A stretch of 64,000 bases of DNA from Candidatus Bathyarchaeota archaeon (GTDB taxonomy: Archaea; Thermoproteota; Bathyarchaeia; Bathyarchaeales; Bathycorpusculaceae). Below are positions 2,817 to 61,511 of the stretch, one piece after another. Made by a program: the position numbers and the translations under genes. Below the pieces are notes generated by a model. It was not told where the DNA came from. It did not search any database and saw only the letters and a list, made by a program, of their open reading frames with translations. How positions within the stretch are numbered: the stretch's first letter is position 1; every line of letters starts with the position of its first letter. The stretch spans positions 160,001-224,000 of the forward strand of contig CAVZIW010000003.1 in the NCBI GenBank assembly GCA_963775465.1, written 5' to 3'.

Positions 2817-3242
2817 ATGTCTTGGCTTAAATCTATGATGGAAAAAGAACCACCAGAACCAGAAAATCCATTAGGTATAGTAGTTATCGGCAACATCGAA
2901 CCAGACATGCACGATACAGCAAAAGAAGCTGTCAGGCGCTCCCTGAAACGTGCAGGCTTCAAAACAATTGACGTCGGAAAAAGCGTTGCTCCCCAAGTAT
3001 TCATCGACAAAGTCAAAGAAAACAATGCAAACATAATCGCTATATCCGTAAACACAGTACCTGCAAAGAATAATCTCGCCAAACTCGATGAACTGCTCAA
3101 ATCATCAGGACTAAAAGAAAAAATAGGCATAATAATGGGCGGCGCAGCTGTCAAAAAAGAAGACGCAGACGCACTCGGCGCACTCTTCGGCAAAAACAAA
3201 GAAGAAGCCCCAGAACTTGCAAAGAAAGCATTGAAGAAATAA
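2817..3242 (+). CDS. Stand-alone cobalamin-binding (corrinoid) protein, MtaC/MtgC-like Rossmann domain
   Basis: GNIEPDMHDTAK (DxHxxG variant), GFKTIDVG, IIAIS and IIMGGAAV. It lies 19 nt upstream of mtrH. Confidence 0.85.
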   Translation: MSWLKSMMEKEPPEPENPLGIVVIGNIEPDMHDTAKEAVRRSLKRAGFKTIDVGKSVAPQVFIDKVKENNANIIAISVNTVPAKNNLAKLDELLKSSGLKEKIGIIMGGAAVKKEDADALGALFGKNKEEAPELAKKALKK

Positions 3243-3261
3243 ATCCCTCAGATGTGGAAAA

Positions 3262-4173
3262 ATGTCCTTTCAATTCAAAACACAACAGAAAGTATACGAG
3301 CTTGGTAAGGTTAAAGTAGGCGGTCAACCGGGCGAATTACCCACTTTTCTGATCGGCTCTATCTTTTGGCTAGGCCAAAAAATGGTTACTGATGCAAACA
3401 AAGGAGTTTTTGATGCAAAAGTTGCCGAACAGATAATAAATACATGCCAAACCCAAAGCGACAAAACTGGTGTCCCCTTCGCTCTTGATATAGTCGGTAC
3501 GACTGAAGCAGCGTTCGAAAAATACATTGACTTCGTACCAAAACACACGGATGCACCTATGATGCTCGATGCAATGAGCCCAAGAACTCGCATGGCAGCA
3601 GCAACCTTAGCAAAGAAAATGGGTCTTGCAGACAATTGCCTCTACAACTCTGTCTACAAAGGAGTCACAGACGCTGAACTCGCAAACCTAAAAGACAGTG
3701 GCATCAAAATGTCCATAGTTCTCGCAGACGATCCAAAAGACACCACCCTTGAAGGCAAAATGAATGTAATAGTCGAAGCACTTGCATTAGCCGATAAAGG
3801 CGGTATCACAAAACCACTCATTGACACAGCTATCCCTGCATTCGAACCAGACATGGGAACAGCCGTCAGAACTATACCAATCATGAAAGAAAAGTATGGT
3901 CACCCAGTCGGCTTAGGAAGCGGAAACGTTGTCACAACCATGGGTTGGGTCAAAGCAAACGTTGCTAAAGAGTTCCGTTATGGATGCAGAACTTCAACAA
4001 ACTCAATTATGCAAGTGGCAGGCGCTAACTGGCTTATGATTGGACCAGCTGAACAAGCGGAATATGTATTCCCCGCTGTCGCAGTAACTGACTCGTACAT
4101 TGGATCTGCTGCAGGCGATCTAGGAACAAGACCCCTGGAAGAATCGCATCCAATCTTTAAGATGTTTGCATAA
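3262..4173 (+). CDS. mtrH: Methyl-H4MPT/H4folate:corrinoid methyltransferase, MtrH/MtgA family
   Basis: F.F..QQKVYELGKVKVGGQPGELPTFLIGSIF start, YNS, PLIDTA and GANWLMIGP...VFPAVA...HPIFKMF end, all typical of the MtrH family. Confidence 0.88.
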   Translation: MSFQFKTQQKVYELGKVKVGGQPGELPTFLIGSIFWLGQKMVTDANKGVFDAKVAEQIINTCQTQSDKTGVPFALDIVGTTEAAFEKYIDFVPKHTDAPMMLDAMSPRTRMAAATLAKKMGLADNCLYNSVYKGVTDAELANLKDSGIKMSIVLADDPKDTTLEGKMNVIVEALALADKGGITKPLIDTAIPAFEPDMGTAVRTIPIMKEKYGHPVGLGSGNVVTTMGWVKANVAKEFRYGCRTSTNSIMQVAGANWLMIGPAEQAEYVFPAVAVTDSYIGSAAGDLGTRPLEESHPIFKMFA

Positions 4174-4212
4174 CATCTTCCTTATTTTTTATATAAACTT
4201 GAAGGTATTATC

Positions 4213-4623
4213 CTGAAACCGCTTAGATGGTTTGAAATAATCGTCTCCTTCACATTTTTAACGATAATAATAACTTATTTTAGTCCAAGTAGCGAAACTT
4301 TTTCTTTTATTCTAGTTCCTCGCTATATTCTAAGTTTCATTTTTATTTCATTCTTGCCTGGATATTGTTTAGTTAAAGTCCTGTTTTTAGGTAAGAACAA
4401 GATTGACATAATCGAAGAACTCGTGTTATCTGTTGCCTTAAGCTTTGGCTTAGCCGGTCTAGTAGGGTTATTCTTGGGCTTATCCCCTATAGGAATAAAC
4501 TTCGGATCCATAACTATCTCATTGAGCGCTATAGTTATGATGTTTGCTGCAATAGCCTTCATCCGAAAAACACGGGAACTCTCAGTGCCTAAAATGCAAG
4601 TACCGAAGCAAATAAGCCCCTGA
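4213..4623 (+). CDS. Small membrane protein, DUF1616-like; probable CTG start upstream of the called TTG at 4354
   Basis: FLPGY..VKVLF...IDIIEELVLSVALS motif. The frame is open back to the mtrH stop. CTG at 4213 follows GAAGGT and adds two more hydrophobic segments. Confidence 0.6.
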   Translation: MKPLRWFEIIVSFTFLTIIITYFSPSSETFSFILVPRYILSFIFISFLPGYCLVKVLFLGKNKIDIIEELVLSVALSFGLAGLVGLFLGLSPIGINFGSITISLSAIVMMFAAIAFIRKTRELSVPKMQVPKQISP

Positions 4624-5961
4624 AGTTTTCACAGCAGCCATTCCATAAACTCCTCCTCTACCCATCATTTTTAATACATAACGGGGTCTGAGATAGAAAT
4701 CTTGGTAGGCTTTAGCCCGTAGCTCAGCAAGTTTTTCCATACTCAACTGGGGGGTCTCAAAGGTTGGACCAGCAGTATCGTATTTGTCAAAATCAGTAAC
4801 CCGTAGCCAGCCGTTTTTAATTACTTGCTCATACATGGGAGTTCCAGGATAAGGAGTCGCTATGTAGAAGCCCACATCATCGGGATTTAGCTCTTTTACT
4901 AAACGAATGGTTTCAAGAGCTGTTTGCTCGGTTTCTCCTGGGAAACCCAAAACTACGTTGGCAATAGTCATTAAACCTATCTGGTGCGCTGTTTTGTATG
5001 CTTTTTTAGTTTGCTCTATCTTTATTTTCTTGTTCATGGCACCTAAGATAAGTTCTGAACCTGACTCGACGCCTAACCAAACTGCAAAGCAGCCAGCATC
5101 ATGCATAGTTTTGAGAAGTTCGTGGTCCACCATATCCACTCGAGTTCCACAATCCCACTTCAAATGCAGCTTCCTTGCATGTAACTCTTCGCAAATTTTG
5201 ACCACTCGGTTACGATCAACGCTAAATGCATCATCGTAGAAGGTTACTTGGTCAACTCCGTATTTGTCGTAGATAAGCTGCATTTCGTCAACGACGTTCT
5301 TGGGGCTACGCATGCGATAACCTCTTCCGAACATCCTTACTGTGCTACAGAAGTCACACCAATAGACACATCCCCGGCTACTGACAAGGGGGAAGATGAT
5401 TTTGCCGTTGTGTTTTAGGTTCTCCAGCGGCAACAGGTGATGCGCTGGGAAAGGTAAACTGTCAAGATCTTCAATGAAAGGTCGATCTGGGTTCCGAACT
5501 ATTTGGAGGTCGCTTCGGTACGTGATGCCCAAAACACCTTTAAGGCTAATAGAACCTTCTATTTTTTCGACAAGTTCCATGAAAGTCAATTCGCCTTCTC
5601 TTCTAACTACGATATCTAAAGCGGGGTACTCTTTGAGAGCGTTCTCGTCCCAGAAAGTGCCATGTGAACCGCCAAGAACTGTAGCTGCTTGGGGATGAAC
5701 TTCTTTGATGATGGATACAAGCTTCATGGCTGACTTGTAAAGTAGTGTGGTCGCGGTTACGCCAACTATGTCGGTGCTTATTTGGGCGATGCGCCTGCGG
5801 AAAGCCTCTGGGTTGAGTTTTTCAGCTTGGCAGTCTATTATAGTGATTTGGTGTCCTGCTTTTTCGGCGACTGCACCAAGATAAGCTAAGCCGAGCGGGA
5901 TGAAGGCTGGATGGGAATGAACACTTGGTGGATAAGGTGGATTAACCAGCGTTATTTTCAT
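4582..5961 (-). CDS. Cobalamin-dependent (class B) radical SAM protein #1
   Basis: LVNPP, PLGLAYL, GGSH, SRGCVYWCDFC, FYDDAF, GVESG, GFPGET and TPYPGT motifs. Confidence 0.92.
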   Translation of the reverse strand: MKITLVNPPYPPSVHSHPAFIPLGLAYLGAVAEKAGHQITIIDCQAEKLNPEAFRRRIAQISTDIVGVTATTLLYKSAMKLVSIIKEVHPQAATVLGGSHGTFWDENALKEYPALDIVVRREGELTFMELVEKIEGSISLKGVLGITYRSDLQIVRNPDRPFIEDLDSLPFPAHHLLPLENLKHNGKIIFPLVSSRGCVYWCDFCSTVRMFGRGYRMRSPKNVVDEMQLIYDKYGVDQVTFYDDAFSVDRNRVVKICEELHARKLHLKWDCGTRVDMVDHELLKTMHDAGCFAVWLGVESGSELILGAMNKKIKIEQTKKAYKTAHQIGLMTIANVVLGFPGETEQTALETIRLVKELNPDDVGFYIATPYPGTPMYEQVIKNGWLRVTDFDKYDTAGPTFETPQLSMEKLAELRAKAYQDFYLRPRYVLKMMGRGGVYGMAAVKTSGAYLLRYLHFRH

Positions 5962-6354: not shown

Positions 6355-7737
6355 TTAGGAGAGTTTAATATGCATGGCTCTTAGAGCGTATGCAGCTGAT
6401 GTTTTCAATCCTGATCTGCCGTATGTTCCGCCTTTGAGCATCATTTTAAGAACATAGCGTGGTCGTAGGTAGAATTTTTGGTGCGCTTTGTACTTGATTT
6501 CTCGGAGTCTGTCCATGCTTAAGTACGGTGTTTCGAATGTTGGAGTGGCTGTATCGTATTTGTTGAAATCGGTCACCCGTAGCCAGTTGTTCTTTATTAC
6601 TTCCTCATACATGGGTGTTCCTGGGTACGGTGTTGCGATATAACAACCGATATCATCGGGGTTTAAGGAATTGATGAAGTTGATGGTTTCCCATGCAGTC
6701 TCTTCGGTTTCTTCCGGAAAGCCAATAACTGCACTAGCAATTGTCATCATGCCGGCTTTCTGAGCCATCTTAAACGCTTCACGGACCTGTTCACGGTTGA
6801 TTTTTTTGTGCATCTTATCCAAAATCTTCTCACTGCCCGATTCGACACCAAACCATATAGTTATGCAACCAGCGTCACGCATCTTCTCCAATAGTTCTCT
6901 GTCGACAGCATCGACCCGGGTTTCGCAGTCCCATTCCACGTCGAGTTTACGTGCCTTAATATCTGCACACATCTCCAACGTGTGATTACGATTAATCGTG
7001 AATGCATCATCATAAAAAGTGAATTGACTCTCTCCGTACTTACTATGTAGCATCTCCATATCATCTACTACTTTTTTGGGACTCCGTACCCGGTATCCTC
7101 TCCCGAACATGCGCACAGTGCTGCAAAAGTCACACCACTGGACACATCCGCGACTAGTAACGATGGGGAAAATGGTTTTACCCATGCGATGATAAGAATC
7201 AAGAGGTAACAGGTGATATGCTGGCGAAGGCAGTGAATCCAAATCATGCAAGAACGGTCTATCTTCGTTACGTTGAATACCATTTTTCGTTCGAACGGTT
7301 GTGCCTAAAACGTCTTCAAACCCCTTATTGGCTTGGATTCGATCAAGCAACTCAAGGAAAGTGAGTTCGCCTTCTTTGCGGACGATTAGATCGAAGGCTT
7401 TGGTTTCGTTAAGTGCGTTTTCATCCCAGAAGCTTACATGGCTTCCTCCGATCATATTGACGGCTTTTGGGTGAACTTCCCTTGCGACCTCCATGATGGT
7501 TTTTGCCGAGTTGTAAAGAAGAGTAGTTGAAGTTACGCCGACAACGTCTGAGGGAACCCCTGCGATTCGCTGGCGGAAGCTTTCGTAGTTGAGTCTTTCA
7601 CCTTGGCAATCGATGACTGTGACTAAATGACCAGCCTGTTCTGCTACTGCACCTAAATAAGCTAAACCTAATGGTATGAAAGGTGGATGGCTGTGGGCAT
7701 TTGGAGGATAAGGTGGATTAACCAGAGTAATTTTCAA
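6355..7737 (-). CDS. Cobalamin-dependent (class B) radical SAM protein #2, tandem paralog of #1
   Basis: Same motifs (SRGCVQWCDFCSTVRMFGRGYR). Aligns by eye with #1 along the full length. Confidence 0.92.
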   Translation of the reverse strand: MKITLVNPPYPPNAHSHPPFIPLGLAYLGAVAEQAGHLVTVIDCQGERLNYESFRQRIAGVPSDVVGVTSTTLLYNSAKTIMEVAREVHPKAVNMIGGSHVSFWDENALNETKAFDLIVRKEGELTFLELLDRIQANKGFEDVLGTTVRTKNGIQRNEDRPFLHDLDSLPSPAYHLLPLDSYHRMGKTIFPIVTSRGCVQWCDFCSTVRMFGRGYRVRSPKKVVDDMEMLHSKYGESQFTFYDDAFTINRNHTLEMCADIKARKLDVEWDCETRVDAVDRELLEKMRDAGCITIWFGVESGSEKILDKMHKKINREQVREAFKMAQKAGMMTIASAVIGFPEETEETAWETINFINSLNPDDIGCYIATPYPGTPMYEEVIKNNWLRVTDFNKYDTATPTFETPYLSMDRLREIKYKAHQKFYLRPRYVLKMMLKGGTYGRSGLKTSAAYALRAMHIKLS

Positions 7738-7867: not shown

Positions 7868-8770
7868 TTATTTGTAGAGTTTTTCCCAATCGCTGAACAG
7901 TTCTAGGACGTCGTCTCCTCCGTGGTCTTTGAGGAATTCGCGTGTTTCTTTGTCTGCTGCTGCTTCTTTCTGGAATTTTTGGATGTATTCAGCTTTTTCA
8001 GCTAGGAAGATGATGCCGTCGACGCCTTGACGTGCAACACGAGTTGCAACTGTCATGATTTGCTTGGTTGTTGCAACAGTATCCCATGTTTCGTTTGGGC
8101 CGCGGACATAGAAGTTAACGAACATTGGCTTCTTTAGTTGGTTCTTAAATCCACGGGCTATTGTTTCCCAGTACCATGGAGTTGGGTATGATTTACTAAA
8201 CATTGGGATAACGAAATAATCGGCGTATTGTGCCATGGCGTCAAAGTCGTAGCCAAAACGTTCCTTTCCCATCAATGGGTCAGGTAGAATGTTTACGTAG
8301 AGTGGTTTGCCGCTGACGATTTCTTTAACTTCTGCAAGGAAATCTGTTACTGTTTTTGCTCTCCAGTCAACCCATTTTAATCCACTTTTACGTTGTTGTT
8401 CAATACATCTCGGACAAGTGCAGAAGTGTTGGTCTGCAAAGTGTTGGCTGCTAATGCTAATTCCTGGGGTAAGTTTGGTAGATTCTGCGATAATCTTTAG
8501 GTTGTATTCACGCGCTTCTGGGTTAGTCATGCAAACGACGTCCCAGCGAAGGTTAAATCGTTTGTTTGTTCGAAGCGCTGGACCAAAAGAGCTTACTGAG
8601 ATCCAGTCGGGACGTTTTGCCGCCATATTGTTGTCGCCAAAAACTGCGATGTTAGTGTACATTTTTGGGTTGGCTTTGCCCACGATTCCTGACTCAGATT
8701 TTTGACGATAAAAGTTGATATCGACGCCTTCAACAGGCTCAGGTTGATATAGGAATACGCCAGATTTCAA
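7868..8770 (-). CDS. GHL10-like TIM-barrel hypothetical protein with CxCxxC
   Basis: RPDW, VCMTNPEAREY, FCTCPRC, WRAKTVTDF and RFGYDFDAMAQYADYFVIPMF segments. Paralog of 10175..11059. Confidence 0.55.
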   Translation of the reverse strand: MKSGVFLYQPEPVEGVDINFYRQKSESGIVGKANPKMYTNIAVFGDNNMAAKRPDWISVSSFGPALRTNKRFNLRWDVVCMTNPEAREYNLKIIAESTKLTPGISISSQHFADQHFCTCPRCIEQQRKSGLKWVDWRAKTVTDFLAEVKEIVSGKPLYVNILPDPLMGKERFGYDFDAMAQYADYFVIPMFSKSYPTPWYWETIARGFKNQLKKPMFVNFYVRGPNETWDTVATTKQIMTVATRVARQGVDGIIFLAEKAEYIQKFQKEAAADKETREFLKDHGGDDVLELFSDWEKLYK

Positions 8771-8824: not shown

Positions 8825-9877
8825 TTAAGTCTTTTCAGGTAATCCCTGTTTATGTTTTTCTTGAATAATACCGATTAAAACGTGTTTTACAAATGGCGGC
8901 AAATTTATCTTTTCGTAATTTGGCAGTTTAGAGTCATCTTTTTTTGATGCAGTAGAGTTGCCAAAACCTTTGATTGCTTCGTTCCAGTTCGCGAAGTTGG
9001 TGGGAAGCAAGTTTTTCTTATAGTCATCATCCATCTTTGCAGCCGCCATAAGATACGCGTTAAAGACTGGTTTATTCGCAAGAATATCCGCTAAAGTTGT
9101 AGTGTCCACTGTTAAGCTTTCAACTTTGGATAGTTCAGTTGCCAATTTATCAAGAGGCAAATGTCTTTCCTTGAGCCTGTCCTCCACACTTCGGCATTCC
9201 CAAAACGGTTCCTGTTTAAGTAAGGCTTCAGTAACTGCGCGCCTTGTACAATACCCGATTGCTTTGCCTAATTTCGAAGCCGGACCAGCCAATGAGATTC
9301 TCTTACCTTTGTCTAATGAAACTAGCGTAACGCTATCAGTAATAGAGCCCGTTGCTGGCTCGCCGTTGTAGAAGCTTCTAACATCAAGATCTCGAAGTGC
9401 GGCTGATTTAGCTTCGGTTGTGGTGATAAGTGCAGCTACCATGCAACTGTCTGATGGCTTTGCATCGATAATGACAATTATGTTTATAGTACCGCCGATT
9501 TCTTGAACATCCATTTGTTCTCCTGCGGATTCGCCATGTTTGCAGCCTGCAGTTGCAATAACGCTTACAGAGAAATCGTCAAGTTTTTGGCTTACAAGGC
9601 TGAAATTTTGGATTTTTGCTGCTGTAACCATGGCCAAATAATCTTTTGTGACGCCTAATTTGGCTGCAGATGATGTTATTAGTTTCAGCGGGTCTAGGTG
9701 CAAGGAGAGGTCATTGTATCCTTCCGGCACCCCTACATTGAGGACAGTTTTTACCTGTTTGTGCCCGCCACAATAAAACGCTGAACTTAGAGTCTTTAAA
9801 GCATTATCACAAGATACGGCTAGTACATTTTCTTTAACTATGAGTTTAATTCCCTCTGCAAGGCTAAAATCCCGCAA
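8825..9877 (-). CDS. cbiZ: Adenosylcobinamide amidohydrolase CbiZ with a C-terminal degenerate CobZ-like region
   Basis: LSSA, MVTAA, ATAG, GTINII, TEAKSAAL, ATGSITDS and AGPASKLG motifs. Confidence 0.85.
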   Translation of the reverse strand: MRDFSLAEGIKLIVKENVLAVSCDNALKTLSSAFYCGGHKQVKTVLNVGVPEGYNDLSLHLDPLKLITSSAAKLGVTKDYLAMVTAAKIQNFSLVSQKLDDFSVSVIATAGCKHGESAGEQMDVQEIGGTINIIVIIDAKPSDSCMVAALITTTEAKSAALRDLDVRSFYNGEPATGSITDSVTLVSLDKGKRISLAGPASKLGKAIGYCTRRAVTEALLKQEPFWECRSVEDRLKERHLPLDKLATELSKVESLTVDTTTLADILANKPVFNAYLMAAAKMDDDYKKNLLPTNFANWNEAIKGFGNSTASKKDDSKLPNYEKINLPPFVKHVLIGIIQEKHKQGLPEKT

Positions 9878-15879: not shown

Positions 15880-16107
15880 AAGAATCTTTCCGATTTTGCC
15901 GTGTGATAGCATAGGTAACTCAGAGTTTTTCTTAAAAGGCTTTCTACAATGCAAGACGGATTGAATCAATTAATTGCGATGATGCAATAACAAGAACTGT
16001 CTTAACGATTACACTGCTCTCTAGTAAAGACGAAAAATTAAAAAAAAATCGTAGCTCTGAATGCATTTAGACCAATAGGAACATATTTACGCTATTCAAG
16101 TAGTCTT

Positions 16108-17607: not shown

Positions 17608-17957
17608 AATGTTCTCCGTTCTACGTGAGAACTATGATGCAGATAATAACCTTTCTGAAAAACAAAAGGACATGTCTTTTAGTCCAAACATTGATCGTTG
17701 ACGCTAAGGCAGCTTTAAATTTTTTTAATGTCGATTTTGTGCCATCAACCATTTCAACAAATATCATAGGGCTGTGCAAAATTTGTTGTATAATTATTTC
17801 CCATTTATCTGTTTGTCTGCTAGAACAACCACACCTAAAAAATTCTTGTTGTTGTTATTCCGACCTTACAAGTTCGCCCAGAATTTTAATTTTCTATGAA
17901 ATAATGCTCTGATTGCTCCACGTAAATATCAAAGTAGGTGAGAAAGGAAAGGTTGCT

Positions 17958-45612: not shown

Positions 45613-45616
45613 ACAA

Positions 45617-50178: not shown

Positions 50179-50349
50179 ACAGTTTTCTCCGTGCCGCTTT
50201 GGTAGTAAATTGAGTGTGTGGGATGTTAAATATTTCTCTAATCGCAATGCCGATTCAAAATGATGCAAAAGGCAATATAATTAAATAATCGACTAAGGTC
50301 GCAAAACGATATAAGATTGTAAATCTCGGAATATATTTCAGGGAAGAAA

Positions 50350-51667: not shown

Positions 51668-51760
51668 TCTTAAGCGCATTAAGGCTATTAATAGAAGGTA
51701 CACTGCTCTGGAGTAAGTGTTCATTTTAGAGCGAAGTGCTTAACTCTGAGAAGTTTTAAA

Positions 51761-53262: not shown

Positions 53263-54207
53263 GTGACTTGGATGGCTGACCTAAAAGGAAAAAAAGTTAT
53301 GGTTACTGGCGGAGCAGGTTTTGTAGGTTATCACCTGTGTAATAAACTCCAAAATTTGACCGATGACTTAACGATTTATGATAATTTATCGAGCGGCAAG
53401 ATTGAGAATGTTAATGATGTTTCGAAAGCAAAGTTCGTGAAGGGTGACATACTTGACCTAACAGGTCTCTTTGACTTACCCAAACAGGATTTAATTTACC
53501 ATTTAGCTGCTCAGGTTGTTGTGCCGTATTCGATGGAGAATCCTATGATTGATTTTGAAACAAACGCCAAAGGCACGCTTAGCGTATTGGAGAAAGCCCG
53601 CAAAGATGATGCCAAACTGGTGTTTGCTTCTAGCGCAGCTGTCTATGGCAACCCAACCCAAATGCCAACCACGGAAGAGTACGGTTTTCATCCGGTTTCA
53701 TGTTATGGCTTATCCAAAGTTGTTGGGGAAGAATATTGCCAAATGTATAGTGAGCAATATGGTTTAGATGTTGTCATCACTCGGTTTGCTAACGTTTACG
53801 GATTGCGTTGCCATGGTGTTATCCATGATTTTCTTGACAAACTTGCTAGGAACCCCAATAAACTTGAAATCATCGGTACTGGTTTGCAGTCACGCGACCT
53901 TGTGCATATTTCTGATGTCGTTGACCTATTGATTACTGTTGGCTCGCTTCAATCAGTAAATGGAGAAACCTATAATGTGGGCTTGGGAAAAACAACCAAG
54001 ATCATAGACCTCGCAAAAATGATGCTAAAAATTCTTGGGCTTCATGACAGGACCCTGATCACAACTACCGGTGTATCCTGGCACGGCGATATTCACACTA
54101 TTTGGTTTGATAACTCAAAAGCAAAAAAAGAACTGGGCTGGAACCCAAAGGTCACCTTGGAAGATGCTATTAAAGAAGTCATCGCTGACAGGAAAATAAA
54201 GATATGA
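53263..54207 (+). CDS. NAD-dependent nucleotide-sugar epimerase/dehydratase, GalE-like
   Basis: TGGAGFVG, HLAAQ, ASSAAVYG, YGLSK and RFANVYG. Confidence 0.9.
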   Translation: MTWMADLKGKKVMVTGGAGFVGYHLCNKLQNLTDDLTIYDNLSSGKIENVNDVSKAKFVKGDILDLTGLFDLPKQDLIYHLAAQVVVPYSMENPMIDFETNAKGTLSVLEKARKDDAKLVFASSAAVYGNPTQMPTTEEYGFHPVSCYGLSKVVGEEYCQMYSEQYGLDVVITRFANVYGLRCHGVIHDFLDKLARNPNKLEIIGTGLQSRDLVHISDVVDLLITVGSLQSVNGETYNVGLGKTTKIIDLAKMMLKILGLHDRTLITTTGVSWHGDIHTIWFDNSKAKKELGWNPKVTLEDAIKEVIADRKIKI

Positions 54208-55118
54208 GTACTGTCAAGCCAGCAAGAGGCCTGATAGCGCTTCTGCGACTTCCTTACTGGCTAATGACTGGTGGATTAGCAGTTTTAACGGCGTTTGCCA
54301 TCTTAAAAGGCGACTTTTCGAGCATACAAACCAATATAGGCAATATGGCTTTCGGTTTGGTTGCATTATTAACTTTTTTTTCCATGGCATTTATAGCTTC
54401 TGCAGGTTTTGCCATAAATGACTATTTTGATCGCGAAAGCGATGCAGTCATTAAACCTAGACGTCCTATTCCTTCAGGTGCACTCTCACTCAAACAGGTT
54501 GTATTTGTTTCCGGGGCACTTTTTGCGTTAGGATTGATTCTTTCATCATTCATAAATTGGCTTAGCTTTACTATCATTGCTATTGATTCACTTTTGCTGT
54601 TGCTTTACTCGTACATGGTCAAGAAGAAGTCAGGTTTTGCAGCAAACCTATTAATGGGGATTTTAACGGGTACCGCGTTTATTTATGGGCAAGCTACCAT
54701 TTCAGATACTATAAACTTAACTTCCTTTACACTTTATCCAATTGCGTTTGGCACCATTGGCGGCAACGTACTTCGAGACATTCTTAGCCTGGAGGGTGAC
54801 TCTAAAGTTGGATATCCCACGTTGCCACAGAAAATCGGGACAATTAGTGCAGCTAAAGTCGGAGCGATATTTTTTCTCTTAACAGGATTGTTAGCGCCCC
54901 TGCCAGCTATACCCTTCTTTGCGGGTCACTTCACAGTTTATTATTTGCCGCTCATTCTACTTTGGAGTATACTTTTAATCTATGCTTCTATACGTCTAAT
55001 GACTTCAGCTTCAACTGTGCAGAACATACGCAAATACGAACGTATCGTAACCATGTCGATGATATTGCTTCCTCTTGCGTTGATCATTGAAGCAGTCCTT
55101 GGGTGGCTATTAGCATGA
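54204..55118 (+). CDS. UbiA-family prenyltransferase, digeranylgeranylglyceryl-phosphate (DGGGP) synthase
   Basis: INDYFDRESDAVIKPRRPIPSG and RDILSLEGD...TLP. ATGA overlap with tes. Confidence 0.85.
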   Translation: MSTVKPARGLIALLRLPYWLMTGGLAVLTAFAILKGDFSSIQTNIGNMAFGLVALLTFFSMAFIASAGFAINDYFDRESDAVIKPRRPIPSGALSLKQVVFVSGALFALGLILSSFINWLSFTIIAIDSLLLLLYSYMVKKKSGFAANLLMGILTGTAFIYGQATISDTINLTSFTLYPIAFGTIGGNVLRDILSLEGDSKVGYPTLPQKIGTISAAKVGAIFFLLTGLLAPLPAIPFFAGHFTVYYLPLILLWSILLIYASIRLMTSASTVQNIRKYERIVTMSMILLPLALIIEAVLGWLLA

Positions 55119-56662
55119 GTGAAACAAAAAGCATATGTCCTGAATGCCAAAAAAAAATCGATGCCCAATTAAGTCAAGCTAATGGCAAAATACAAATTAC
55201 TAAGCGATGTCCAGAACATGGAGACTTTAAAGCAACCCACTGGCAAAGTAAGCCCATATTTGAACATATGCAAAAATACGACCAATTCCAATATCTGGGC
55301 GACCTAAATGCACCCAAAAACCCTGATGGCTGCCCCTATAAGTGCGAAACCTGCACTCAACATGCTTCAGGCACGGTTATAGGCGTAATTGACGTAACCA
55401 AACGCTGCAACTTCAAATGTGCAGTTTGCTTCTCTACTTTTCCCCAACAAGACTCAGATTATGAACCAACAAGAGAAGCACTCGAAAATATGTTGATATT
55501 CGCAAGCGAAGCAAATCCTAAACCTCCAGCCATTCTCTTCTCAGGCGGTGAACCTCTTGAACGAGAAGACATGCCTGAAATAATCGCTACTGCTCATAAA
55601 CTGAAGTTCATGACTATTTTAGCAACTAACGGAACCCATTTAGTTGACACTCCTGGCTTAGCCAAGAAACTAAAAGACAGCGGTTTAAACATCGTTTATC
55701 TGTCATTTGATAGTTTTCATGAAGAATTCAACAAAAAAGTGCGGGGACTTGAGCTTGTTGACATGAAACTTAAGGCAATCGAAGTTTGCCGTAAATATGA
55801 TATGGAAATAATTCTTGTAAATACGCTCATGAAGAGCCTCAATGACAAAGAAGTTGGTGATATGATACGGTTCGCCGCCAAAAACACCGATATAATTAGA
55901 GGTTTAATCTTCCAACCCATCGCGTTTACAGGGAGAGCAACCGAAAATCCTTTCCGTGAAAACTTCCGCGAATGGAGCTTTGCCGAAGGTGTTGAAAAAC
56001 AAACTGATGGTGAAATAAAAGCTACTGATTTATATCCGATGTCGGTTATGACTTCGCCAATTAAAATTATGCGTAAATTCATGCAAAAACCTTGGCCGTT
56101 GTTCTCGTGTAGCCCACAGTGCGGTATAGTAAACTGGGTTTATGTTTCTAAAAACGGCAAAATGTTCCCAATAAACCGCTTCGTGAATTTTGACCGCTTC
56201 TTTAACAGCATTCGCAAGACCGCGGAGGCAGCTGAATCCAAAGGCAAAATGTCCTTGCTTTCGTCACTATTCATGGCATCTATGCTATCGATGGACATGT
56301 TCTTAGTTACAAAGGAAGTAGGAATGCCAACACTTGTTAAATCAATCATGCGCATGCATCTCTCACCATCGTACCAGTCGTTGGGAAAAATTCGACGCAG
56401 AATATTCCTGTTAGGCTGCATGGCCTTTATGGATTCTTTCAACTTTGACGTTAACCGCGTCCGCCGATGTGTAGTTCACTACATAACCCCTGACCTCAAA
56501 ATAATACCGTTCTGCGCCTACAACAATGTGCATCGAGTGGCTATAGAAAAAGAATACGCACAACGCCAAAGCAAAACCCAATCAAACTTACAATATACTG
56601 TTTCTAACACAAATTCTAATGAGATTACGCCAAACGCTAAACTGAAAAATACTCGCAAGTAG
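55115..56662 (+). CDS. tes: Tetraether lipid synthase (Tes / GDGT-MAS) radical SAM enzyme
   Basis: N-terminal SICPEC...KRCPEHG, GCPYKC..C.QH, DVTKRCNFKCAVCF, YLSFD, FQPIAFTGR and C-terminal MAFMDSFNFDVNRVRRCVVHYITPD..IPFCAYN. Confidence 0.88.
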   Translation: MSETKSICPECQKKIDAQLSQANGKIQITKRCPEHGDFKATHWQSKPIFEHMQKYDQFQYLGDLNAPKNPDGCPYKCETCTQHASGTVIGVIDVTKRCNFKCAVCFSTFPQQDSDYEPTREALENMLIFASEANPKPPAILFSGGEPLEREDMPEIIATAHKLKFMTILATNGTHLVDTPGLAKKLKDSGLNIVYLSFDSFHEEFNKKVRGLELVDMKLKAIEVCRKYDMEIILVNTLMKSLNDKEVGDMIRFAAKNTDIIRGLIFQPIAFTGRATENPFRENFREWSFAEGVEKQTDGEIKATDLYPMSVMTSPIKIMRKFMQKPWPLFSCSPQCGIVNWVYVSKNGKMFPINRFVNFDRFFNSIRKTAEAAESKGKMSLLSSLFMASMLSMDMFLVTKEVGMPTLVKSIMRMHLSPSYQSLGKIRRRIFLLGCMAFMDSFNFDVNRVRRCVVHYITPDLKIIPFCAYNNVHRVAIEKEYAQRQSKTQSNLQYTVSNTNSNEITPNAKLKNTRK

Positions 56663-56764: not shown

Positions 56765-57433
56765 ATGACTCAGAAGTTTGCAACGACAATACTTAAGGCG
56801 CTAGAGGATACGCTGGATTTGCCCAAACTCGTAGAAACTAACGCCGATCCATTTAAAACATTAGTCGTAACGATAATTTCACAAAATACTACCGATACCA
56901 ATACCGAACGTGCCTTCACAATTCTCTCCAAAAAGTTCGAAATTACTCCTAAAATATTGGCCAGAGCCCAAACAGGTGCTATTGAAGAATGCATCAAAAT
57001 TGCGGGACTTTGCAAAAATAAAGCCAAAACAATACAAAATGCCTCAAATACAATTATGGCGAAGTTTCAAGGTTCACTTAACCCCATCTTGTCTTTGCCC
57101 ATTGACGAAGCAAGAAATATTCTTATGGACTTACCTGGTGTCGGTCCTAAAACCGCAGACGTTGTTTTATTATTTTCTGCAAATAAACCCACTATTCCAG
57201 TCGATACACATGTGAATCGGGTTTCAAAGCGGCTTGGTTTGGCGCCATCTAACAGCGGTTACGAAGAAGTGCGCGCATGTCTTCAAGCAATATTCGAACC
57301 AAAAGACTACCTATCGGTACATCTGCTGCTGATTGCGCTGGGCAGAAAATACTGCAAAGCCCGTAGACCTCTCTGTCCAAAATGCTCCGTTAACTCCGAT
57401 TGCCCCAAAAACAGTTTAGGGGTAAAGCAATGA
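56765..57433 (+). CDS. nth: Endonuclease III (HhH-GPD, 4Fe-4S)
   Basis: ISQNTTD, LPGVGPKTAD, PVDTHV and CKARRPLCPKC...C. Confidence 0.93.
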   Translation: MTQKFATTILKALEDTLDLPKLVETNADPFKTLVVTIISQNTTDTNTERAFTILSKKFEITPKILARAQTGAIEECIKIAGLCKNKAKTIQNASNTIMAKFQGSLNPILSLPIDEARNILMDLPGVGPKTADVVLLFSANKPTIPVDTHVNRVSKRLGLAPSNSGYEEVRACLQAIFEPKDYLSVHLLLIALGRKYCKARRPLCPKCSVNSDCPKNSLGVKQ

Positions 57434-59364
57434 TTAAGCTTCCAAGTGAAGCTGAAGCATACTTTCCTTACAATAGTGTACGCCCCCACCAAGATGATTT
57501 CATAAGCACAGTTTACAGCGCAGTCGATAACAAACGTTCAGTTCTAATTGAGGGCAGCAACGGGCTCGGAAAGACTATTTCTTCGTTATCAGCCTGTTTG
57601 CCTGTAGCCATTAAAAAGAATCTAAAAATCTTGTATGTTGCTAGGACCCATCGTCAGCATGACCGTGTTATTGAAGAGCTTCGGGCAGTCTACAAGCGTC
57701 ACCCTGTTTCTGGTGTTTCTATTCGGGGACGAAATGAAATGTGTCTTAACGCGTTTGCTGCTGACGGAGGATTTGATTCAAAGTCCATGATGGAGGTTTG
57801 CGAATTATTGAAAGCTAAGGGGAGGTGTCCATTCTACGTTAATGTGGACAATCGAACCTACGATTATCTCCAGCTTCAACAGCAAGTTGCCACCCACCCA
57901 TATATGGCATCTGAAATTCTGCGTTTCTGCAGAAAAAAAGAACTCTGTCCATATGAGCTCGTTAAAGGGGCTGTTTCAGACGCAAAAGTGATAGCTTTAA
58001 GCTACTTGTATGTTTTTGACCCGCAAATACGAAATGCTTTTTTAAAAAATCTAGAAACCGACTTGGGAAAAATTATACTCATAGTCGATGAAGCCCACAA
58101 TTTGCCTGAAACTGCCGTGGATATTTCAAGTAGCTCCCTTTCGTTATTCGTGATGAAACAGGCTGAGTCAGAAGCTAAGCACTTCGGCAAAAAAGATATT
58201 GAAGAGTTTGTAAGTTTTTTTAGAGATGAAGTCGAAAAAATAACTGACAAAGTCAGCAAAGAAGAAATTATTTCTCCTGACAGTTTAATTGAAATCATCC
58301 AAAAACAGGGAAACATCGCCAACCCCGAAAAATTCTTTGAACACATGCATGATGAAGGAGGAGCCATTAAGAAAACACTTTTAGCTGAAGGCAAAAATCC
58401 CCGTTCCTATGTACATGCTATGGGTGAATTTTTGCTAAAATGGCATGATACTGTAGATGATGACTCATTCATCAACGTAGCAAGCCATTATTTCACCAAA
58501 GAAAATAACAAAACTGCAAAACTAGAAATTGTCGCCCTTGACCCAGCCAAAATAACTGAGCCCATTTTCGCGTCAACCTATGCTAACGTTATCATGTCAG
58601 GTACTCTTCAGCCTTTGGAAGCTTACGCGCGAATCACTAGGCTTCCTCAAAGCACTGTAAGGTTTCTTGCACCTTCGCCATTTGCCAAAGAACATGTTTT
58701 CTCAGCAGTTAGCTGTGGCGTAACTACTTCTATGGAAAAAAGGACTCCCTTAATGTATAAAACAATGATAGAACGCATTAACGAAGTCGTGAACAGCACC
58801 CCCACCAATACAGGAGTTTTTGCAGCTTCTTTTCAAGTCCTAAACCAGTTGTTGGAGGCAGGGTTAGAGGACTCATTGCTTAAGCCCTTATTTCACGAAC
58901 ATCGCGGTATGACCTCCAAGGCAAATGAGAAGCTCGTTCAGGATTTCAAAGTCTGTGGCTGCAAAGGCGGCGCTGTGTTTCTAGGGGTTCAAGGTGGACG
59001 AACTTCAGAAGGAGTGGATTTTCCTGGTAACCAAATGGATTCGGTAATTGTTGTAGGGGTGCCTTATGCAGAGCCGACACCAAGAGTCAAAGCACAAATT
59101 GACTATTATGAGAAATGTTTTCCAGGGTTAGGCCGCGAATATGGCTACATTTTGCCAGCAATGAAAAAAGCTTCTCAAGCTGCAGGAAGACCCATAAGAA
59201 CTTTAGAAGATAAGGGAGCTATTGTGTTTTTGGACTATCGTTTTTCTACCACTTACTGCCGAAACTTCTTACCATCATGGATAACTAATTCAATGAAAGT
59301 TTTACCTGATAAAAGGGACGTTTTAGCAGTCGAAGTCAGCGATTTCTTTAGAAATCAATCTTGA
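57430..59364 (+). CDS. xpd: XPD/Rad3/DinG Fe-S DNA helicase
   Basis: FPY..RPHQ, GLGKT, Fe-S cysteines, DEAHN, MSGTL, SEGVDF and QAAGRPIR. ATG 57430 overlaps the nth stop. Confidence 0.88.
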   Translation: MIKLPSEAEAYFPYNSVRPHQDDFISTVYSAVDNKRSVLIEGSNGLGKTISSLSACLPVAIKKNLKILYVARTHRQHDRVIEELRAVYKRHPVSGVSIRGRNEMCLNAFAADGGFDSKSMMEVCELLKAKGRCPFYVNVDNRTYDYLQLQQQVATHPYMASEILRFCRKKELCPYELVKGAVSDAKVIALSYLYVFDPQIRNAFLKNLETDLGKIILIVDEAHNLPETAVDISSSSLSLFVMKQAESEAKHFGKKDIEEFVSFFRDEVEKITDKVSKEEIISPDSLIEIIQKQGNIANPEKFFEHMHDEGGAIKKTLLAEGKNPRSYVHAMGEFLLKWHDTVDDDSFINVASHYFTKENNKTAKLEIVALDPAKITEPIFASTYANVIMSGTLQPLEAYARITRLPQSTVRFLAPSPFAKEHVFSAVSCGVTTSMEKRTPLMYKTMIERINEVVNSTPTNTGVFAASFQVLNQLLEAGLEDSLLKPLFHEHRGMTSKANEKLVQDFKVCGCKGGAVFLGVQGGRTSEGVDFPGNQMDSVIVVGVPYAEPTPRVKAQIDYYEKCFPGLGREYGYILPAMKKASQAAGRPIRTLEDKGAIVFLDYRFSTTYCRNFLPSWITNSMKVLPDKRDVLAVEVSDFFRNQS

Positions 59365-59554
59365 GCTTCCTTAATATTCATATCTGCTAGAACGTTTCTA
59401 AACACAGATCCTTCGTTGGCTTCAAAATGATTTTCGTCTTTTTTCCTGATGAACCCGCACTTTGTTATTCTTCTGCGATTGTTTGCCGAGTGCTTATATT
59501 TTTCAGAAACAAGGTGAACCCAGGTAAATTTGTAAAATAAAAGTTGCCTAATTG

Positions 59555-60199
59555 CTACGAATTGTTTGTCGCAATAAGCTTCCTCCTTTTATAAACGTGC
59601 CCAGACCTGCCTGCTATACGAATGGCTGAAGAAATGTGCCTAATTTTACGGGTATGCTTTTTTTGGGGTTTGTCAGTTCCTGCTTCGTTCACCACTTCCA
59701 ACTTTACCTGGATTGGCAGAACATTATCTAGATCAATCACCAGGTCTCTGTAAATGGGCGTTCCATTTCCAATCTTAACCACAACGTGTGTATGTTCAAA
59801 GTTTACGTTTCTTGTTGCCCTAAGCGCGCTATTAGATAATTCACGAACGCTGAAATTATTACTTTCTTCAATTACTTTTCCATCAGCCAAAACAGCCAAT
59901 CCAATTGTCTCACCTGGGTCAATTCCAATAACTATTCTATCAAACATTTCTTTTCCGAGAAGAATCCTTTTGATCTCGCTAATTAAATTCTCTAACTCGT
60001 TCTCGCTTTTAAAAACAAGAATTTTTCCATAGTTTACCAGGCTCTTTTCTCTTTCGGTTGTTATTACTATCTTAACTCTGGTAAAAATTGGATTACCTGG
60101 GATTATACTGCTGAAGGCAATGTTTTGTTCTTTTAGTGCGTTAACGATTAGGAAGTATGCTTTGCCTTGGATTGTTGCAACTGCAACTTTTTCTTTCAT
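59555..60199 (-). CDS. Hypothetical protein with an RNase H-like (YqgF-type) domain
   Basis: IVIGIDPGETIGLAV, KIGNG, VNEAGT and SAIRIA. Start ATG 60199. Confidence 0.65.
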   Translation of the reverse strand: MKEKVAVATIQGKAYFLIVNALKEQNIAFSSIIPGNPIFTRVKIVITTEREKSLVNYGKILVFKSENELENLISEIKRILLGKEMFDRIVIGIDPGETIGLAVLADGKVIEESNNFSVRELSNSALRATRNVNFEHTHVVVKIGNGTPIYRDLVIDLDNVLPIQVKLEVVNEAGTDKPQKKHTRKIRHISSAIRIAGRSGHVYKRRKLIATNNS

Positions 60200-60274
60200 A
60201 AAGAAATCCTTAAAGTATACGTTTAAGTGCAAAACTCATTATTATCTTCAAGTTAATAATCCTGACGTGAAAAA

Positions 60275-60967
60275 ATGGTGGAAATCCAGACAGGCTGCAG
60301 TTGCATCGATACTAATATAGGCGGCGGAATCAAAAAAGACGTCATAACTCTAATTTATGGAGCTCCGGAAACAGGGAAGTCTACCCTCGCAATGCAGTGC
60401 TCCGTTAACTGTGCTATTCAAAACTTGAAGGTTCTTTTTGTGGACTGCGACAACACATTCTCAACAAAGCGGCTTGCCCAGATTTCTGGGGACAAATTTG
60501 ATGAGGTTGCTGAACGAATTATTTTAGTTAAGCCCAAGAATTTTTGTGAGCAAACTGCTTTTATAGACCAAATTCAAGATTACGTAAACAAAAATGTCGG
60601 GTTAATCGTATTTGACACTTTGACTTCGCTTTATGGAGCAGAAGTCTGCGAAACTTCAAGTAAAACTTTCTCTATTAACCGTGAATTAAACAGGCAATTA
60701 GCTATTTTGGCGCAGACTGTAAAAATCTGCAAAATCCCCCTGATAATCACCAGCCAAGTCCGAAGCATTTTAGGCGAGCAAGAAGATAATGTTCGACCTG
60801 TAGCGACTAGAGTTTTAAAGTTTTGGGCAGAAACCATAATTGCATTAAAACCAACTGAGCAGCCTCAAATAATAAAGGCGGTTCTTGAGAAAAAGCATGA
60901 GACTGATAATGAAGTTGTATGTTATGTACAAATAGGGGAAATGGGAATACAAGATAGCAACCCCTAA
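60275..60967 (+). CDS. radB: DNA repair protein RadB (RecA/Rad51 paralog without the N-terminal domain)
   Basis: TGCSCID..IGGG, GAPETGKS, IVFDTLTSLY and ITSQV. 230 aa. Confidence 0.85.
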   Translation: MVEIQTGCSCIDTNIGGGIKKDVITLIYGAPETGKSTLAMQCSVNCAIQNLKVLFVDCDNTFSTKRLAQISGDKFDEVAERIILVKPKNFCEQTAFIDQIQDYVNKNVGLIVFDTLTSLYGAEVCETSSKTFSINRELNRQLAILAQTVKICKIPLIITSQVRSILGEQEDNVRPVATRVLKFWAETIIALKPTEQPQIIKAVLEKKHETDNEVVCYVQIGEMGIQDSNP

Positions 60968-60974
60968 TTAATGG

Positions 60975-61511
60975 TTGAAAGTCATGGATATTGCACTGCT
61001 ACTCGTTGAAGCTTTGAAATTCATTTTTCCAGCATATTGTGCCAACGGCACACCTGTCCTTGCTGGAGGCGGAACCAAAATGGATTTTGGCAAAAACTTT
61101 ATCGACGGCAAACGCGTTTTTGGCAATAACAAAACTTTCCGCGGTTTTTTTTTCGGGTGGGCAGTTGGGTTTGCTGTTGGCTTAATGGAAGGATTTGTTT
61201 TCGGTTTTGAAAATTTTCCTGTTCTGTTTGCTTTGCTTATTCCGTTGGGAGCGCTTTTGGGAGATTTGACTGGGGCTTTTGTAAAACGTAGATTAAGCAT
61301 TGCTCCAGGAGGCTTGTTACCTATTGTGGACCAGGTTGATTTTGTAGTGGGGGCTGTTGTCTTTTCTCTTCCACTTGCATTGACTATTTGGTCAACTGGT
61401 GTTATTCCTTTTTGGCAGATAGCTGTGGTCGCATTGATTATTACTCCGCCAATTCATCTATTAACTAATTTCTGTGCGTATAAATTGAAGTTAAAGAAAA
61501 ATCCTTGGTAA
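60975..61511 (+). CDS. carS: CDP-archaeol synthase
   Basis: PAYCANGTPV, DGKRVFGNNKTFRG, GDL.GAFVKRR, DQVDF and H...N...KKNPW. Confidence 0.92.
   Translation: MKVMDIALLLVEALKFIFPAYCANGTPVLAGGGTKMDFGKNFIDGKRVFGNNKTFRGFFFGWAVGFAVGLMEGFVFGFENFPVLFALLIPLGALLGDLTGAFVKRRLSIAPGGLLPIVDQVDFVVGAVVFSLPLALTIWSTGVIPFWQIAVVALIITPPIHLLTNFCAYKLKLKKNPW

Follow-up and report, generated by a model that had tools for sequence, protein, structure and literature searches.

What brings twelve radical S-adenosylmethionine (SAM) genes together in one small part of an archaeal genome? The DNA that raises this question, referred to below as the window, is a 64,000-nucleotide stretch of a Candidatus Bathyarchaeota archaeon (GCA_963775465.1, contig CAVZIW010000003.1, positions 160,001 to 224,000 of the forward strand) and makes up 2.6% of a 92% complete assembly (G000) of 2,417,524 bases on 15 contigs. 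Genes were inventoried from an open reading frame (ORF) listing together with Pfam and NCBIfam profile scans; coordinates are window positions unless a contig or locus is named, and in our labels C denotes a contig, G a sampled genome, L a fetched locus, and g and f a genus and a family, the window's genome belonging to genus g1 of family f1. An earlier note on this DNA had counted 12 radical SAM genes between 4582 and 56662, namely seven class B (B12-binding) enzymes, three SPASM enzymes, one HemN-like enzyme, and Tes; the scans bear out this count and recover nearly every other gene named there, a separate ferredoxin gene excepted. The window holds 12 of the genome's 44 radical SAM (PF04055) matches where about 1.2 would be expected (binomial P = 1.1e-9), and 7 of its 12 class B loci (binomial P = 6.4e-9, a statistic in which the class B copies are not wholly independent, B1 and B2 being neighbours that are 64% identical). 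The clustering is more than chance: these genes form a conserved island, whose extent we take as 358-56662. With a probability of about 0.5, we read it as an accessory island of Bathy-6-type and related Bathyarchaeia that would make and tailor a special pool of membrane-spanning isoprenoid (glyco)lipids, equipped with a cobamide assembly of its own.

The island is shared with a second family. Of the 49 ORFs that we list from 358 to 56662, 33 find their best match in a single 64-kb stretch (C1:422-486 kb) of G115, a closed genome of genus g27 in a family other than the window's. When the 40-kb flanks of the island are put to the same comparison, matches in that stretch fall to 1/31 ORFs on the upstream side and 5/37 on the downstream side; this flank control (6/68 vs 33/49) rules out general genome collinearity as the cause of the synteny. 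Gene order is broadly similar, G115 reading unk783, corrinoid protein, MtrH, unk300, CbiZ, unk294, CN-hydrolase; then surface propeller, SPASM1, HemN-like, aldo-keto reductase, MTase239, B3, CbiB, amidohydrolase, SPASM2; then B7, B6, RnfD, unk218, B1, MTase270, SPASM3; and last the glycosyltransferases (GT) GT4, GT2b, and GT2a, followed by unk177, CobD, CobY, CobS, TesL (the Tes paralogue discussed below), UbiA, and a short-chain dehydrogenase/reductase (SDR). Six of the eight G115 class B genes lie together in one 17-kb part of that island. The window's asparagine-synthase-like gene, htpX, metK, DUF4443, and GPN GTPase are missing from it, as is the downstream Nth-XPD-RadB-CarS-TopA block with its DNA-repair genes. 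Island blocks recur in G221, G183, and G189, and in the named records Bathy6-F90 cMAG (TesL 85% identical), palsa_986, Ca. Bathycorpusculum soli, and Ca. Bathyarchaeum sp. bin115. Linkage of the cluster to the Tes-type and cob genes, the conservation of which had been proposed as a check, is thus kept across two families, as judged from synteny in G115 and in f1 relatives.

Presence and absence tell a similar story. We searched a class-level sample of 201 Bathyarchaeia genomes for three markers: the TesL type (at least 45% identity), group I class B genes (the B1/B2/B6 type, at least 49% identity to B6), and the island type of CobS (at least 138 bits). TesL occurs in 25 of the 201 genomes, group I in 26, and island CobS in 24 plus one contig-end fragment, each of them in the same six genera, which are g1, g14, g17, g18, and g19 of the window's family and g27 of the other. 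Genome G174 (90% complete) has only a group I fragment, and seven genomes from six island-free genera of the window's family gave no CobS match at all. The island-bearing genomes are kin, so that their number should not be read as 25 independent events; two or three gains or losses may be all that lies behind the pattern. In 9 of the 18 genomes of the window's own genus, one contig holds both TesL and several class B genes, no more than about 86 kb apart; in eight others the two are on different contigs, and G011 has no TesL-type match.

Which of these genes point to lipids? The clearest candidates form an operon of overlapping genes, kept in 7/7 relatives examined, that consists of an SDR epimerase recognised by Pfam (53263-54207, plus strand), a UbiA prenyltransferase (54204-55118, plus) likewise recognised by Pfam, and TesL (55103-56662, plus; PF23545 and PF04055). 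TesL scores 463.8 bits on the Tes model NF045702 (cut-off 450), has an N-terminal Zn-ribbon, the radical SAM motif CX3CX2C, and C-terminal Cys motifs, and aligns over residues 7-486 to the structure of GDGT-MAS (MJ0619; PDB 7TOL, E 1.8e-112; GDGT, glycerol dialkyl glycerol tetraether), retaining CPxC...CPEHG, GCPYxCxxCxxH, RCNxxCxxCF, and IPFCxYN. We predict from this family membership that it catalyses tail-to-tail coupling of the Tes type. The gene had been called simply Tes, and its place in the family stands; a better-scoring canonical Tes (672.7 bits) lies on contig 13 amid ribosomal protein and other housekeeping genes, however, and we therefore name the window copy TesL, a divergent paralogue. 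At 39% identity to the canonical copy, and with a distribution of only six genera, TesL is not the principal, vertically inherited tetraether synthase. The listed Tes matches outside the six TesL genera in the 201-genome sample are all of canonical type and 34-43% identical to TesL, and nine Tes loci from other families are 41-73% identical to the canonical copy, with none of the window's neighbour genes beside them. The TesL ORF is 519 amino acids (aa) long here and about 488-495 aa in most relatives; as matches in several genomes of the same genus meet a stop codon inside the ORF and end near residue 494, the window TesL carries a C-terminal extension of about 25 aa.

The prenyltransferase in this operon had been called a digeranylgeranylglyceryl phosphate (DGGGP) synthase. 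It is a UbiA prenyltransferase whose best PDB match is DGGGP synthase (6M31, E 1.6e-29; chlorophyll synthase structures, E 5e-11), so that DGGGPS-like is apt, but it is a second, lower-scoring copy below the DGGGPS cut-offs: on NF009521 it reaches 151.6 bits (cut-off 296), where a copy on contig 15 reaches 178.3, also below cut-off, and on NF009523 the two score 160.4 and 224.9 bits, respectively.

Further support for a lipid role comes from SPASM3 (48754-50268, minus), which overlaps a DUF362 gene (47799-48761, minus). Its AhbD-like core spans residues 148-496 and contains a SPASM domain (PF13186); at 308.5 bits on TIGR04545 (cut-off 500) it is not AhbD itself. The core is preceded by an N-terminal extension of about 115-145 aa, the lower figure applying if the protein begins, as its close relatives do, some 30 residues further in. 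The accessible portion of Garcia et al. (PNAS 2024, PMC11214058; 10.1101/2023.10.20.563219) defines Gms, the glycerol monoalkyl glycerol tetraether (GMGT) synthase, as an AhbD-like radical SAM enzyme with an N-terminal extension of about 100 aa (COG4001), describes frequent clustering of gms with the B12-radical SAM methylase gene gmm, and reports that Bathyarchaeota are rich in Gms homologues and that their genomes hold several members of the Gmm2 clade each, in some cases on a single scaffold. Searched on their own, residues 1-150 of SPASM3 find 41 of 80 Gms-like loci, which come from many archaeal lineages; for the Gms-like genes of Archaeoglobi, Methanobacteriaceae, and Methanosuratincola the E values run from 1e-8 to 1e-17. 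The named matches are metagenome-assembled genomes (MAGs), Methanobrevibacter acididurans, and Methanofastidiosum sp., and the characterised Gms enzymes of T. guaymasensis, T. celer, P. furiosus, and M. okinawensis are not among them. A word-indexed search with the extension gave 441 matches, and the 120 listed are all close Bathyarchaeia relatives. These likenesses support the assignment of SPASM3, the sole gene of its kind in the genome, as a Gms-type enzyme. At another Bathyarchaeia locus (L059), a Gms-like gene adjoins canonical Tes.

Two other SPASM enzymes resemble AhbD and lack the extension. SPASM1 (17958-19061, minus; AhbD/NirJ-like) aligns with TIGR04545 over model positions 1-339 of 339 at 210 bits (cut-off 500) and has a 55% identical counterpart in G115; SPASM2 (26965-28056, minus) is an AhbD-like SPASM/twitch protein. 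Pfam recognises the SPASM domain in two of the three AhbD-like enzymes at E<=1e-5, and in the third the alignment to the AhbD model runs over the full length. SPASM2 heads a run of three radical SAM genes (24133-28056, minus) with gaps of 16 and 113 bases, the others being B3 and a HemN/ChuW-like enzyme (24133-25431, minus) identified by NCBIfam and Pfam.

The class B genes are the most numerous. All seven carry PF02310 and PF04055 (B5 in two pieces) and fall in a length class of about 460-500 aa, the proteins of the island measuring 458-490 aa. Group I comprises B1 (4582-5961, minus), B2 (6355-7737, minus), and B6 (37963-39357, minus), which are 49-64% identical, B1 and B2 marking the upper end; B3 (25545-26948, minus) and B4 (31527-32999, minus), 44% identical, form group II; and B7 (40613-41989, plus) is group III. 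B5 (34684-36139, minus), excluded from the tree on which this grouping rests, is split into two overlapping ORFs by one frameshift immediately upstream of the CX3CX2C motif. Identity between groups I-III is 30-41%, and each has its own counterpart in another family (those of B6, B7, and the nearby MTase270 in G115 being 61%, 54%, and 48% identical), which argues that these are at least three old subfamilies rather than the products of a recent burst. We compared them with the named families BchE, HpnJ, HpnR, ApyD, PhpK, BzaD, Mmp10-type, RiPP (ribosomally synthesised and post-translationally modified peptide) C-methyltransferases, and TIGR04190. BchE is the top named match, below its cut-off, for five of the six intact genes, and the BzaD model gives 124-154 bits against a cut-off of 450. 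TIGR04190 (the Ta0216 family) had been considered as a stand-in for Grs and was dropped, since a control search in Sulfolobus acidocaldarius found nothing over cut-off. At nine loci outside Bathyarchaeia a class B gene adjoins a Gms-like gene, the best window match being B1, B3, or B6 at 36-42% identity. In the window no class B gene directly adjoins SPASM3; the nearest, B7, ends 6.8 kb away, and the two share no operon. Lipids are a candidate substrate of the class B enzymes.

Two class B genes elsewhere in the genome deserve mention in their own right. The most divergent (C13:155669-157093; L006:9670-11094) shares 22-30% identity with the rest; it is located in a glycosyltransferase-rich stretch, 8 kb upstream of canonical Tes, and may encode another lipid or glycan enzyme. 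On contig 6 (L005:16983-18810), about 6.5 kb away from a 606-aa class B gene, are phage-type tail sheath and tail tube genes, which may represent either a prophage remnant or a contractile injection system.

Does the island also supply the cofactor of these enzymes? Five genes of late cobamide synthesis lie within it, all on the minus strand: CbiZ (8825-9877; PF01955, 159.4 bits), CbiB (36385-37410; NF002281, 280.9 bits, cut-off 273), CobD (within 43173-47802; TIGR01140, 269.7 bits, cut-off 290.55), CobY (51761-52393; 99.1 bits, cut-off 250), and an island type of CobS (52390-53223; TIGR00317, 101.5 bits, cut-off 110). Only CbiB exceeds its curated cut-off; CobD, CobS, and CobY fall below theirs, and CbiZ is recognised by Pfam. 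The genome holds other copies, which score higher in all four comparable cases: CbiZ (191.5 bits vs 159.4) and CbiB (321.2 vs 280.9) on contig 8, the former beside BtuFCD-like transport genes, CobY elsewhere (155.6 vs 119.9), and CobS at C3:255 kb (151, above the cut-off, vs 101.5). The second cobD, on contig 8 (C8:125854-126916; L044:9798-10929), is broken into two overlapping ORFs of 196 and 193 aa, and the intact island cobD would be the genome's only whole copy if this split is no assembly error. The claim that the cluster brings its own cofactor supply stands in so far as five cob genes are interleaved with class B genes, and has to be qualified in that they are lower-scoring, paralogous second copies.

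The five cob paralogues form no operon of their own but are interspersed among putative client genes, in one-strand runs such as CbiZ-unk300-B2-B1, CbiB-B5 (with CbiB upstream), and unk177-CobD (with a 2-base gap); gaps and runs were read from ORF coordinates and hint at co-transcription. The cobS-cobY pair diverges from the SDR-UbiA-TesL operon across a 39-base spacer between the cobS and SDR starts, a head-to-head pairing kept in 4/4 f1 relatives examined and within 2-3 kb in g27. As five consecutive steps are duplicated together, they most simply represent a second working cobamide assembly line. Organohalide-respiring bacteria also have extra cbiZ, cbiB, cobD, and cobS copies beside cobamide-dependent enzymes, the consumers of the cofactor; here, in contrast, the domain of life and the clients are different, and copies and clients alternate at the level of single genes. 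Such a mingling of cofactor users with a full second set of late cobamide genes is unusual, and is relevant to the question of how anaerobes adjust the supply, and perhaps the type, of cobamide to their B12-dependent radical chemistry.

The metK and carS genes named in the earlier note are present, but both, like mtrH, are single copy in the genome, and metK and carS lie outside the conserved island of G115. MetK (14701-15969, minus), of bacterial type (TIGR01034, 548.5 bits; three S-AdoMet_synt Pfam domains), is the only SAM synthetase gene of the genome, tblastn finding no second metK in it; a 74% identical metK lies near SPASM1-like genes at another Bathyarchaeia locus (L101).

How might such an island work? 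Assigning every enzymatic step from family membership, we propose that the SDR-UbiA-TesL operon would supply or condense an isoprenoid ether lipid, the DGGGPS-like UbiA acting as prenyltransferase and TesL performing the tail-to-tail C-C coupling; that GT2a (of the polyprenyl-phosphate hexose synthase type), GT2b, GT4, and possibly the GT-C-like unk783 would add sugars; that the Gms-type SPASM3 would cross-link chains; that class B groups I-III and B5 could use cobamide to methylate, desaturate, or cyclise unactivated carbons of chain or backbone; and that the HemN-like and the two extension-less AhbD-like enzymes may carry out further radical steps. The second CbiZ, CbiB, CobD, CobY, and CobS would rebuild cobamide from salvaged cobinamide for the class B enzymes, in whose transcription units the cob copies appear to be placed, and a membrane RnfD-ferredoxin(-FrhB) protein is the candidate electron donor. 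The suggestion of a lipid-tailoring kit is strengthened by the presence of lipid families (TesL, UbiA, SPASM3) in a conserved cluster, whereas the part of it that has the class B enzymes act on lipids remains at the level of a candidate. What the data show directly is the content of the island, the paralogy of its genes, a synteny peculiar to it in two families, and the joint occurrence of its parts across genera.

We also considered that the same genes, with a prenyltransferase and a tetraether synthase of their own, could constitute a complete parallel route to a chemically distinct membrane-spanning lipid, such as backbone-methylated butanetriol or pentanetriol tetraethers, for which a literature search found no reported synthase, or multiply methylated, cross-linked glyco-tetraethers, the CobY, CobS, CbiB, and CobD copies having been recruited for a non-standard cobamide dedicated to the island's enzymes or for a nucleotide-activated phosphodiester head group. 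The head-group option arises because CobY follows the logic of CarS-like activation and CobS that of alcohol phosphotransfer, and the tight, conserved head-to-head pairing across the 39-base spacer keeps the parallel route in play; we nevertheless consider both the route and the recruitment quite unlikely.

Parts of the island have precedents. Like the gms-gmm(-grs) neighbourhoods of Thermococcus guaymasensis and other archaea, as far as these are described in the portions available (PMC11214058, 10.1101/2023.10.20.563219), it links a Gms-type enzyme to B12-binding radical SAM enzymes; unlike them, it has 6-7 class B genes of at least three subfamilies, none beside the Gms-type gene, and adds a Tes paralogue, a DGGGPS-like gene, three glycosyltransferases, two extension-less AhbD-like genes, a HemN-like gene, and five cob genes. 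The island's class B genes are set beside the Gmm2 clade of those authors by description, not by sequences. The ted-hgs-grs cluster of Ca. Bathyarchaeota B1_G15 (10.1101/2025.10.20.683597, as covered in the accessible text) likewise contains a lipid-clustered Bathyarchaeia B12-radical SAM gene, a distant Gmm homologue that acts on GDGT, and since Ted does so, B12-radical SAM paralogues can carry out lipid chemistry other than methylation. In that account, however, the ted homologue search was set at 500 aa or more, above the 458-490 aa of the island proteins, and ted overlaps an AttH-like gene; no AttH-type Pfam match was found in the window or in three other scanned loci of its genome. TesL shares with Tes/GDGT-MAS its Zn-ribbon, radical SAM core, C-terminal Cys motifs, and a score above the NF045702 cut-off, but differs in its restriction to six genera and in always following SDR and UbiA genes.

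The closest relatives in print are the B12-rich Bathy-6 genomes, which come from the same lineage and of which the Bathy6-F90 cMAG carries the island block. The available part of that paper (ISME Commun 2024, ycae156, PMC11697101) reports 7-20 B12-type radical SAM genes per MAG and B12 genes at three loci, and describes BtuFCD and CbiZ salvage as well as MtgA/MtgC; the radical SAM enzymes are taken there as candidates for lignin metabolism, and nothing in the sections seen describes Tes, Gms-type, and duplicated cob genes gathered in one island. A search confined to titles and abstracts turned up neither a butanetriol-tetraether synthase nor an account of this island in print. The locus is real, conserved, and only partly anticipated, and its earlier label of largely undescribed holds in part: no account of the island itself was found, but multiple Gmm2-clade copies in Bathyarchaeota are already on record in what we could consult of Garcia et al.

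We wish to stress that a number of findings weigh against the accessory lipid island proposed above. None of the six intact class B proteins reaches an NCBIfam equivalog cut-off (best scores 216-250 bits against cut-offs of 481-750), and their 36-42% identity to Gms-adjacent class B genes barely exceeds the 30-41% between their own groups. In the tree, the Gms-adjacent class B genes from the nine loci form their own clade (approximate likelihood ratio support, SH-aLRT, 87), and island groups I and II another (100), with poorly resolved branching between the two in a tree that includes no characterised Gmm; the comparison set left out characterised Gms, Gmm, Grs, and Ted alike. Canonical Tes lies outside the island. 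In genus g14, the class B genes either sit on contigs other than that of the TesL operon or are separated from it by more than 70 kb, and the order-level sample contains three Tes genomes without a class B match and three class B genomes without a Tes match. Lastly, the island holds five consecutive cobamide paralogues, joined in G115 by a CobQ/CbiA-like amidotransferase; given these paralogues and best named matches to AhbD/NirJ, ChuW, and BchE, tailoring of a corrinoid or tetrapyrrole fits such genes equally well.

On that last possibility, the substrate of the radical SAM enzymes would be a corrinoid, its lower ligand, or another tetrapyrrole, the cob set would build a special cofactor, and UbiA could prenylate it in the manner of heme O and chlorophyll synthases. 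Each of the five late cobamide steps has a divergent second copy here, cbiZ heads the strand run containing B2 and B1, the G115 island includes the amidotransferase, and the FrhB-type domain family to which part of the putative electron donor belongs includes chlorophyll reductases; the best named matches are AhbD/NirJ for three enzymes, ChuW/HutW for one, and BchE for five of the six intact class B proteins, and UbiA matches chlorophyll synthase structures (E 5e-11). We nonetheless regard such tailoring as unlikely, since the named matches lie far below curated cut-offs, the SPASM3 extension is specific to Gms rather than AhbD, UbiA fits DGGGP synthase far better (E 1.6e-29), TesL keeps the full Tes architecture, and three glycosyltransferases have no role in cobamide synthesis. 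A tentative alternative is a mosaic centred on B12, in which modules are held together by shared cobamide dependence and a lipid/glycan unit of SDR-UbiA-TesL, the Gms-type enzyme, and the glycosyltransferases is separate from the class B, SPASM, and HemN-like enzymes and the MtgC/MtgA pair, which would act on other substrates, such as the lignin-derived aromatics or methoxy compounds put forward by the Bathy-6 authors (PMC11697101, available sections). The scatter of the TesL module and class B genes in g14 would be expected of a mosaic, as would the cob paralogue in each sub-block, the inclusion of a corrinoid protein-MtrH pair and a PQQ-type propeller both here and in G115, and the 7-20 B12-type radical SAM genes of each Bathy-6 MAG with their suggested lignin role; but TesL, island CobS, and group I class B genes share presence and absence across 201 genomes, the modules adjoin in g1, g17, and g27, general scans found no aromatic-catabolism genes among the island ORFs, and the lignin proposal draws on annotation abundance only.

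SPASM enzymes and class B C-methyltransferases are also typical of RiPPs, and the island could mature a ribosomal peptide or modify the surface propellers encoded within it, with the glycosyltransferases serving protein glycosylation. ApyD and RiPP-methylase models do give 120-240 bits, PQQ-type propeller genes lie in the island of both families, GT2a is AglJ-like, and unk783 is perhaps STT3/PMT-like; these model matches are below cut-off, however, no precursor-peptide gene, protease, or exporter set was recognised in scans of the island, and TesL, UbiA, and the Gms-type extension are left unexplained, making modification of peptides or surface proteins very improbable. That the genes have no common function at all, their density arising from tandem duplication in a variable region, we find scarcely credible: B1 and B2 adjoin at 64% identity, unk218a and unk218b are 94% identical, and housekeeping genes (htpX, metK, GPN GTPase) are interspersed, but at least three old class B subfamilies each have a counterpart in another family, unrelated families share one pattern of presence and absence, and the synteny control (33/49 ORFs conserved with G115 vs 6/68 flank ORFs) already disfavours it.

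In sediments, peat, and wetlands, Bathyarchaeia rank with the most abundant of the uncultured archaea, and they are suspected sources of several tetraether biomarkers used in palaeoclimate work, cross-linked, methylated, and butanetriol-backbone forms among them; to our knowledge, Ted is the only lipid radical SAM enzyme of theirs tested so far. What the island offers is a short, defined list of conserved genes: those for a single Gms-type enzyme, for class B enzymes of three to four subfamilies, for a HemN-like enzyme, and for a second Tes together with the prenyltransferase that accompanies it. All of them could be expressed in the heterologous hosts in which Tes, Gms, Gmm, and Ted have been studied.

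The remaining genes of the island are as follows from its left edge, which is marked by unk783 (358-2709, minus), a 783-aa membrane protein without a match in the Pfam and NCBIfam scans. It has about 10 hydrophobic, probably transmembrane (TM) segments and a 27% identical counterpart at the same end of the G115 island, and is a possible GT-C-type glycosyltransferase (PMT_2/STT3-like cluster lead, score 0.93). Next come a corrinoid protein (2817-3242, plus; PF02310, 49 bits) and an MtrH/MtgA-like methyltransferase (3262-4173, plus; PF02007, 258.6 bits), both kept beside the island in G115 at 60% and 51% identity. The methyl-transfer pair reported earlier is therefore present, but matches the MtgC/MtgA pair described for Bathy-6 in the available text (PMC11697101) and not a methyl supply for the class B enzymes. 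Around CbiZ, unk300 (7868-8770, minus; a GHL10/DUF4015-like lead), unk294 (10175-11059, plus; an ORF), and a CN-hydrolase (11046-11840, minus) keep the same order in G115.

Two small paralogues, unk151 (19188-19643, minus) and unk146 (37519-37959, plus), are 43-44% identical, with weak winged-helix (HTH/TrmB) matches at E 0.001-0.03 and two C-terminal TM segments, and may be membrane-tethered regulators of the island. The 723-aa fusion at 19884-22055 (plus; PF03116, PF12837, PF04422, PF04432) joins an RnfD/NqrB-type membrane domain, a 4Fe-4S ferredoxin domain, and an FrhB/FpoF-type domain. It contains the sole ferredoxin-type match of the window Pfam scan, which found no separate ferredoxin gene; unk95 (17625-17912), with 8 Cys, had been a candidate, and is probably no gene, as its translation is of low complexity and without a Pfam match. 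RnfD counterparts in G115 (438 aa) and G189 do not include the FrhB part, and the RnfD part and unk218 are retained together in G115, G221, G183, and G189. The window has unk218 as a tandem pair of 218-aa proteins with 4-5 TM segments (unk218a, 22229-22885, and unk218b, 23383-24039, both plus), where G115 has a single counterpart after RnfD.

PQQ-like surface propellers are encoded at 28263-30797 (with counterparts 47% identical in the G115 island and 50% in Ca. Bathyarchaeum) and, by Pfam, at 50350-51729. Scans confirmed the two GT2 and one GT4 glycosyltransferases and both class I methyltransferases, MTase239 (30792-31511, minus, 15 bases from B4) and MTase270 (39566-40378, plus). GT2a, which resembles AglJ and dolichyl-phosphate-hexose synthases, begins the plus-strand series GT2a-GT2b-GT4 that faces unk177-CobD on the minus strand (43173-47802), a conserved block kept in five genomes (G189, G115, G221, G183, and G000) and in named Bathyarchaeia loci. 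An Amidohydro_3 hydrolase (33144-34679, plus; PF07969, 304 bits) is single copy, with a 49% identical counterpart in G115, and an aldo-keto reductase (42350-42940, plus) is truncated to positions 122-274 of the PF00248 profile, its 278-aa counterpart in G115 carrying a 4Fe-4S dicluster domain.

Beyond the right edge lies the Nth-XPD-RadB-CarS-TopA block. Its XPD-RadB-CarS...TopA part (57400-63843) also occurs in Ca. Methanosuratincola (L071, L082, L089), where a Gms-like gene is located between carS and topA, an arrangement that may reflect an old link between carS and lipid tailoring.

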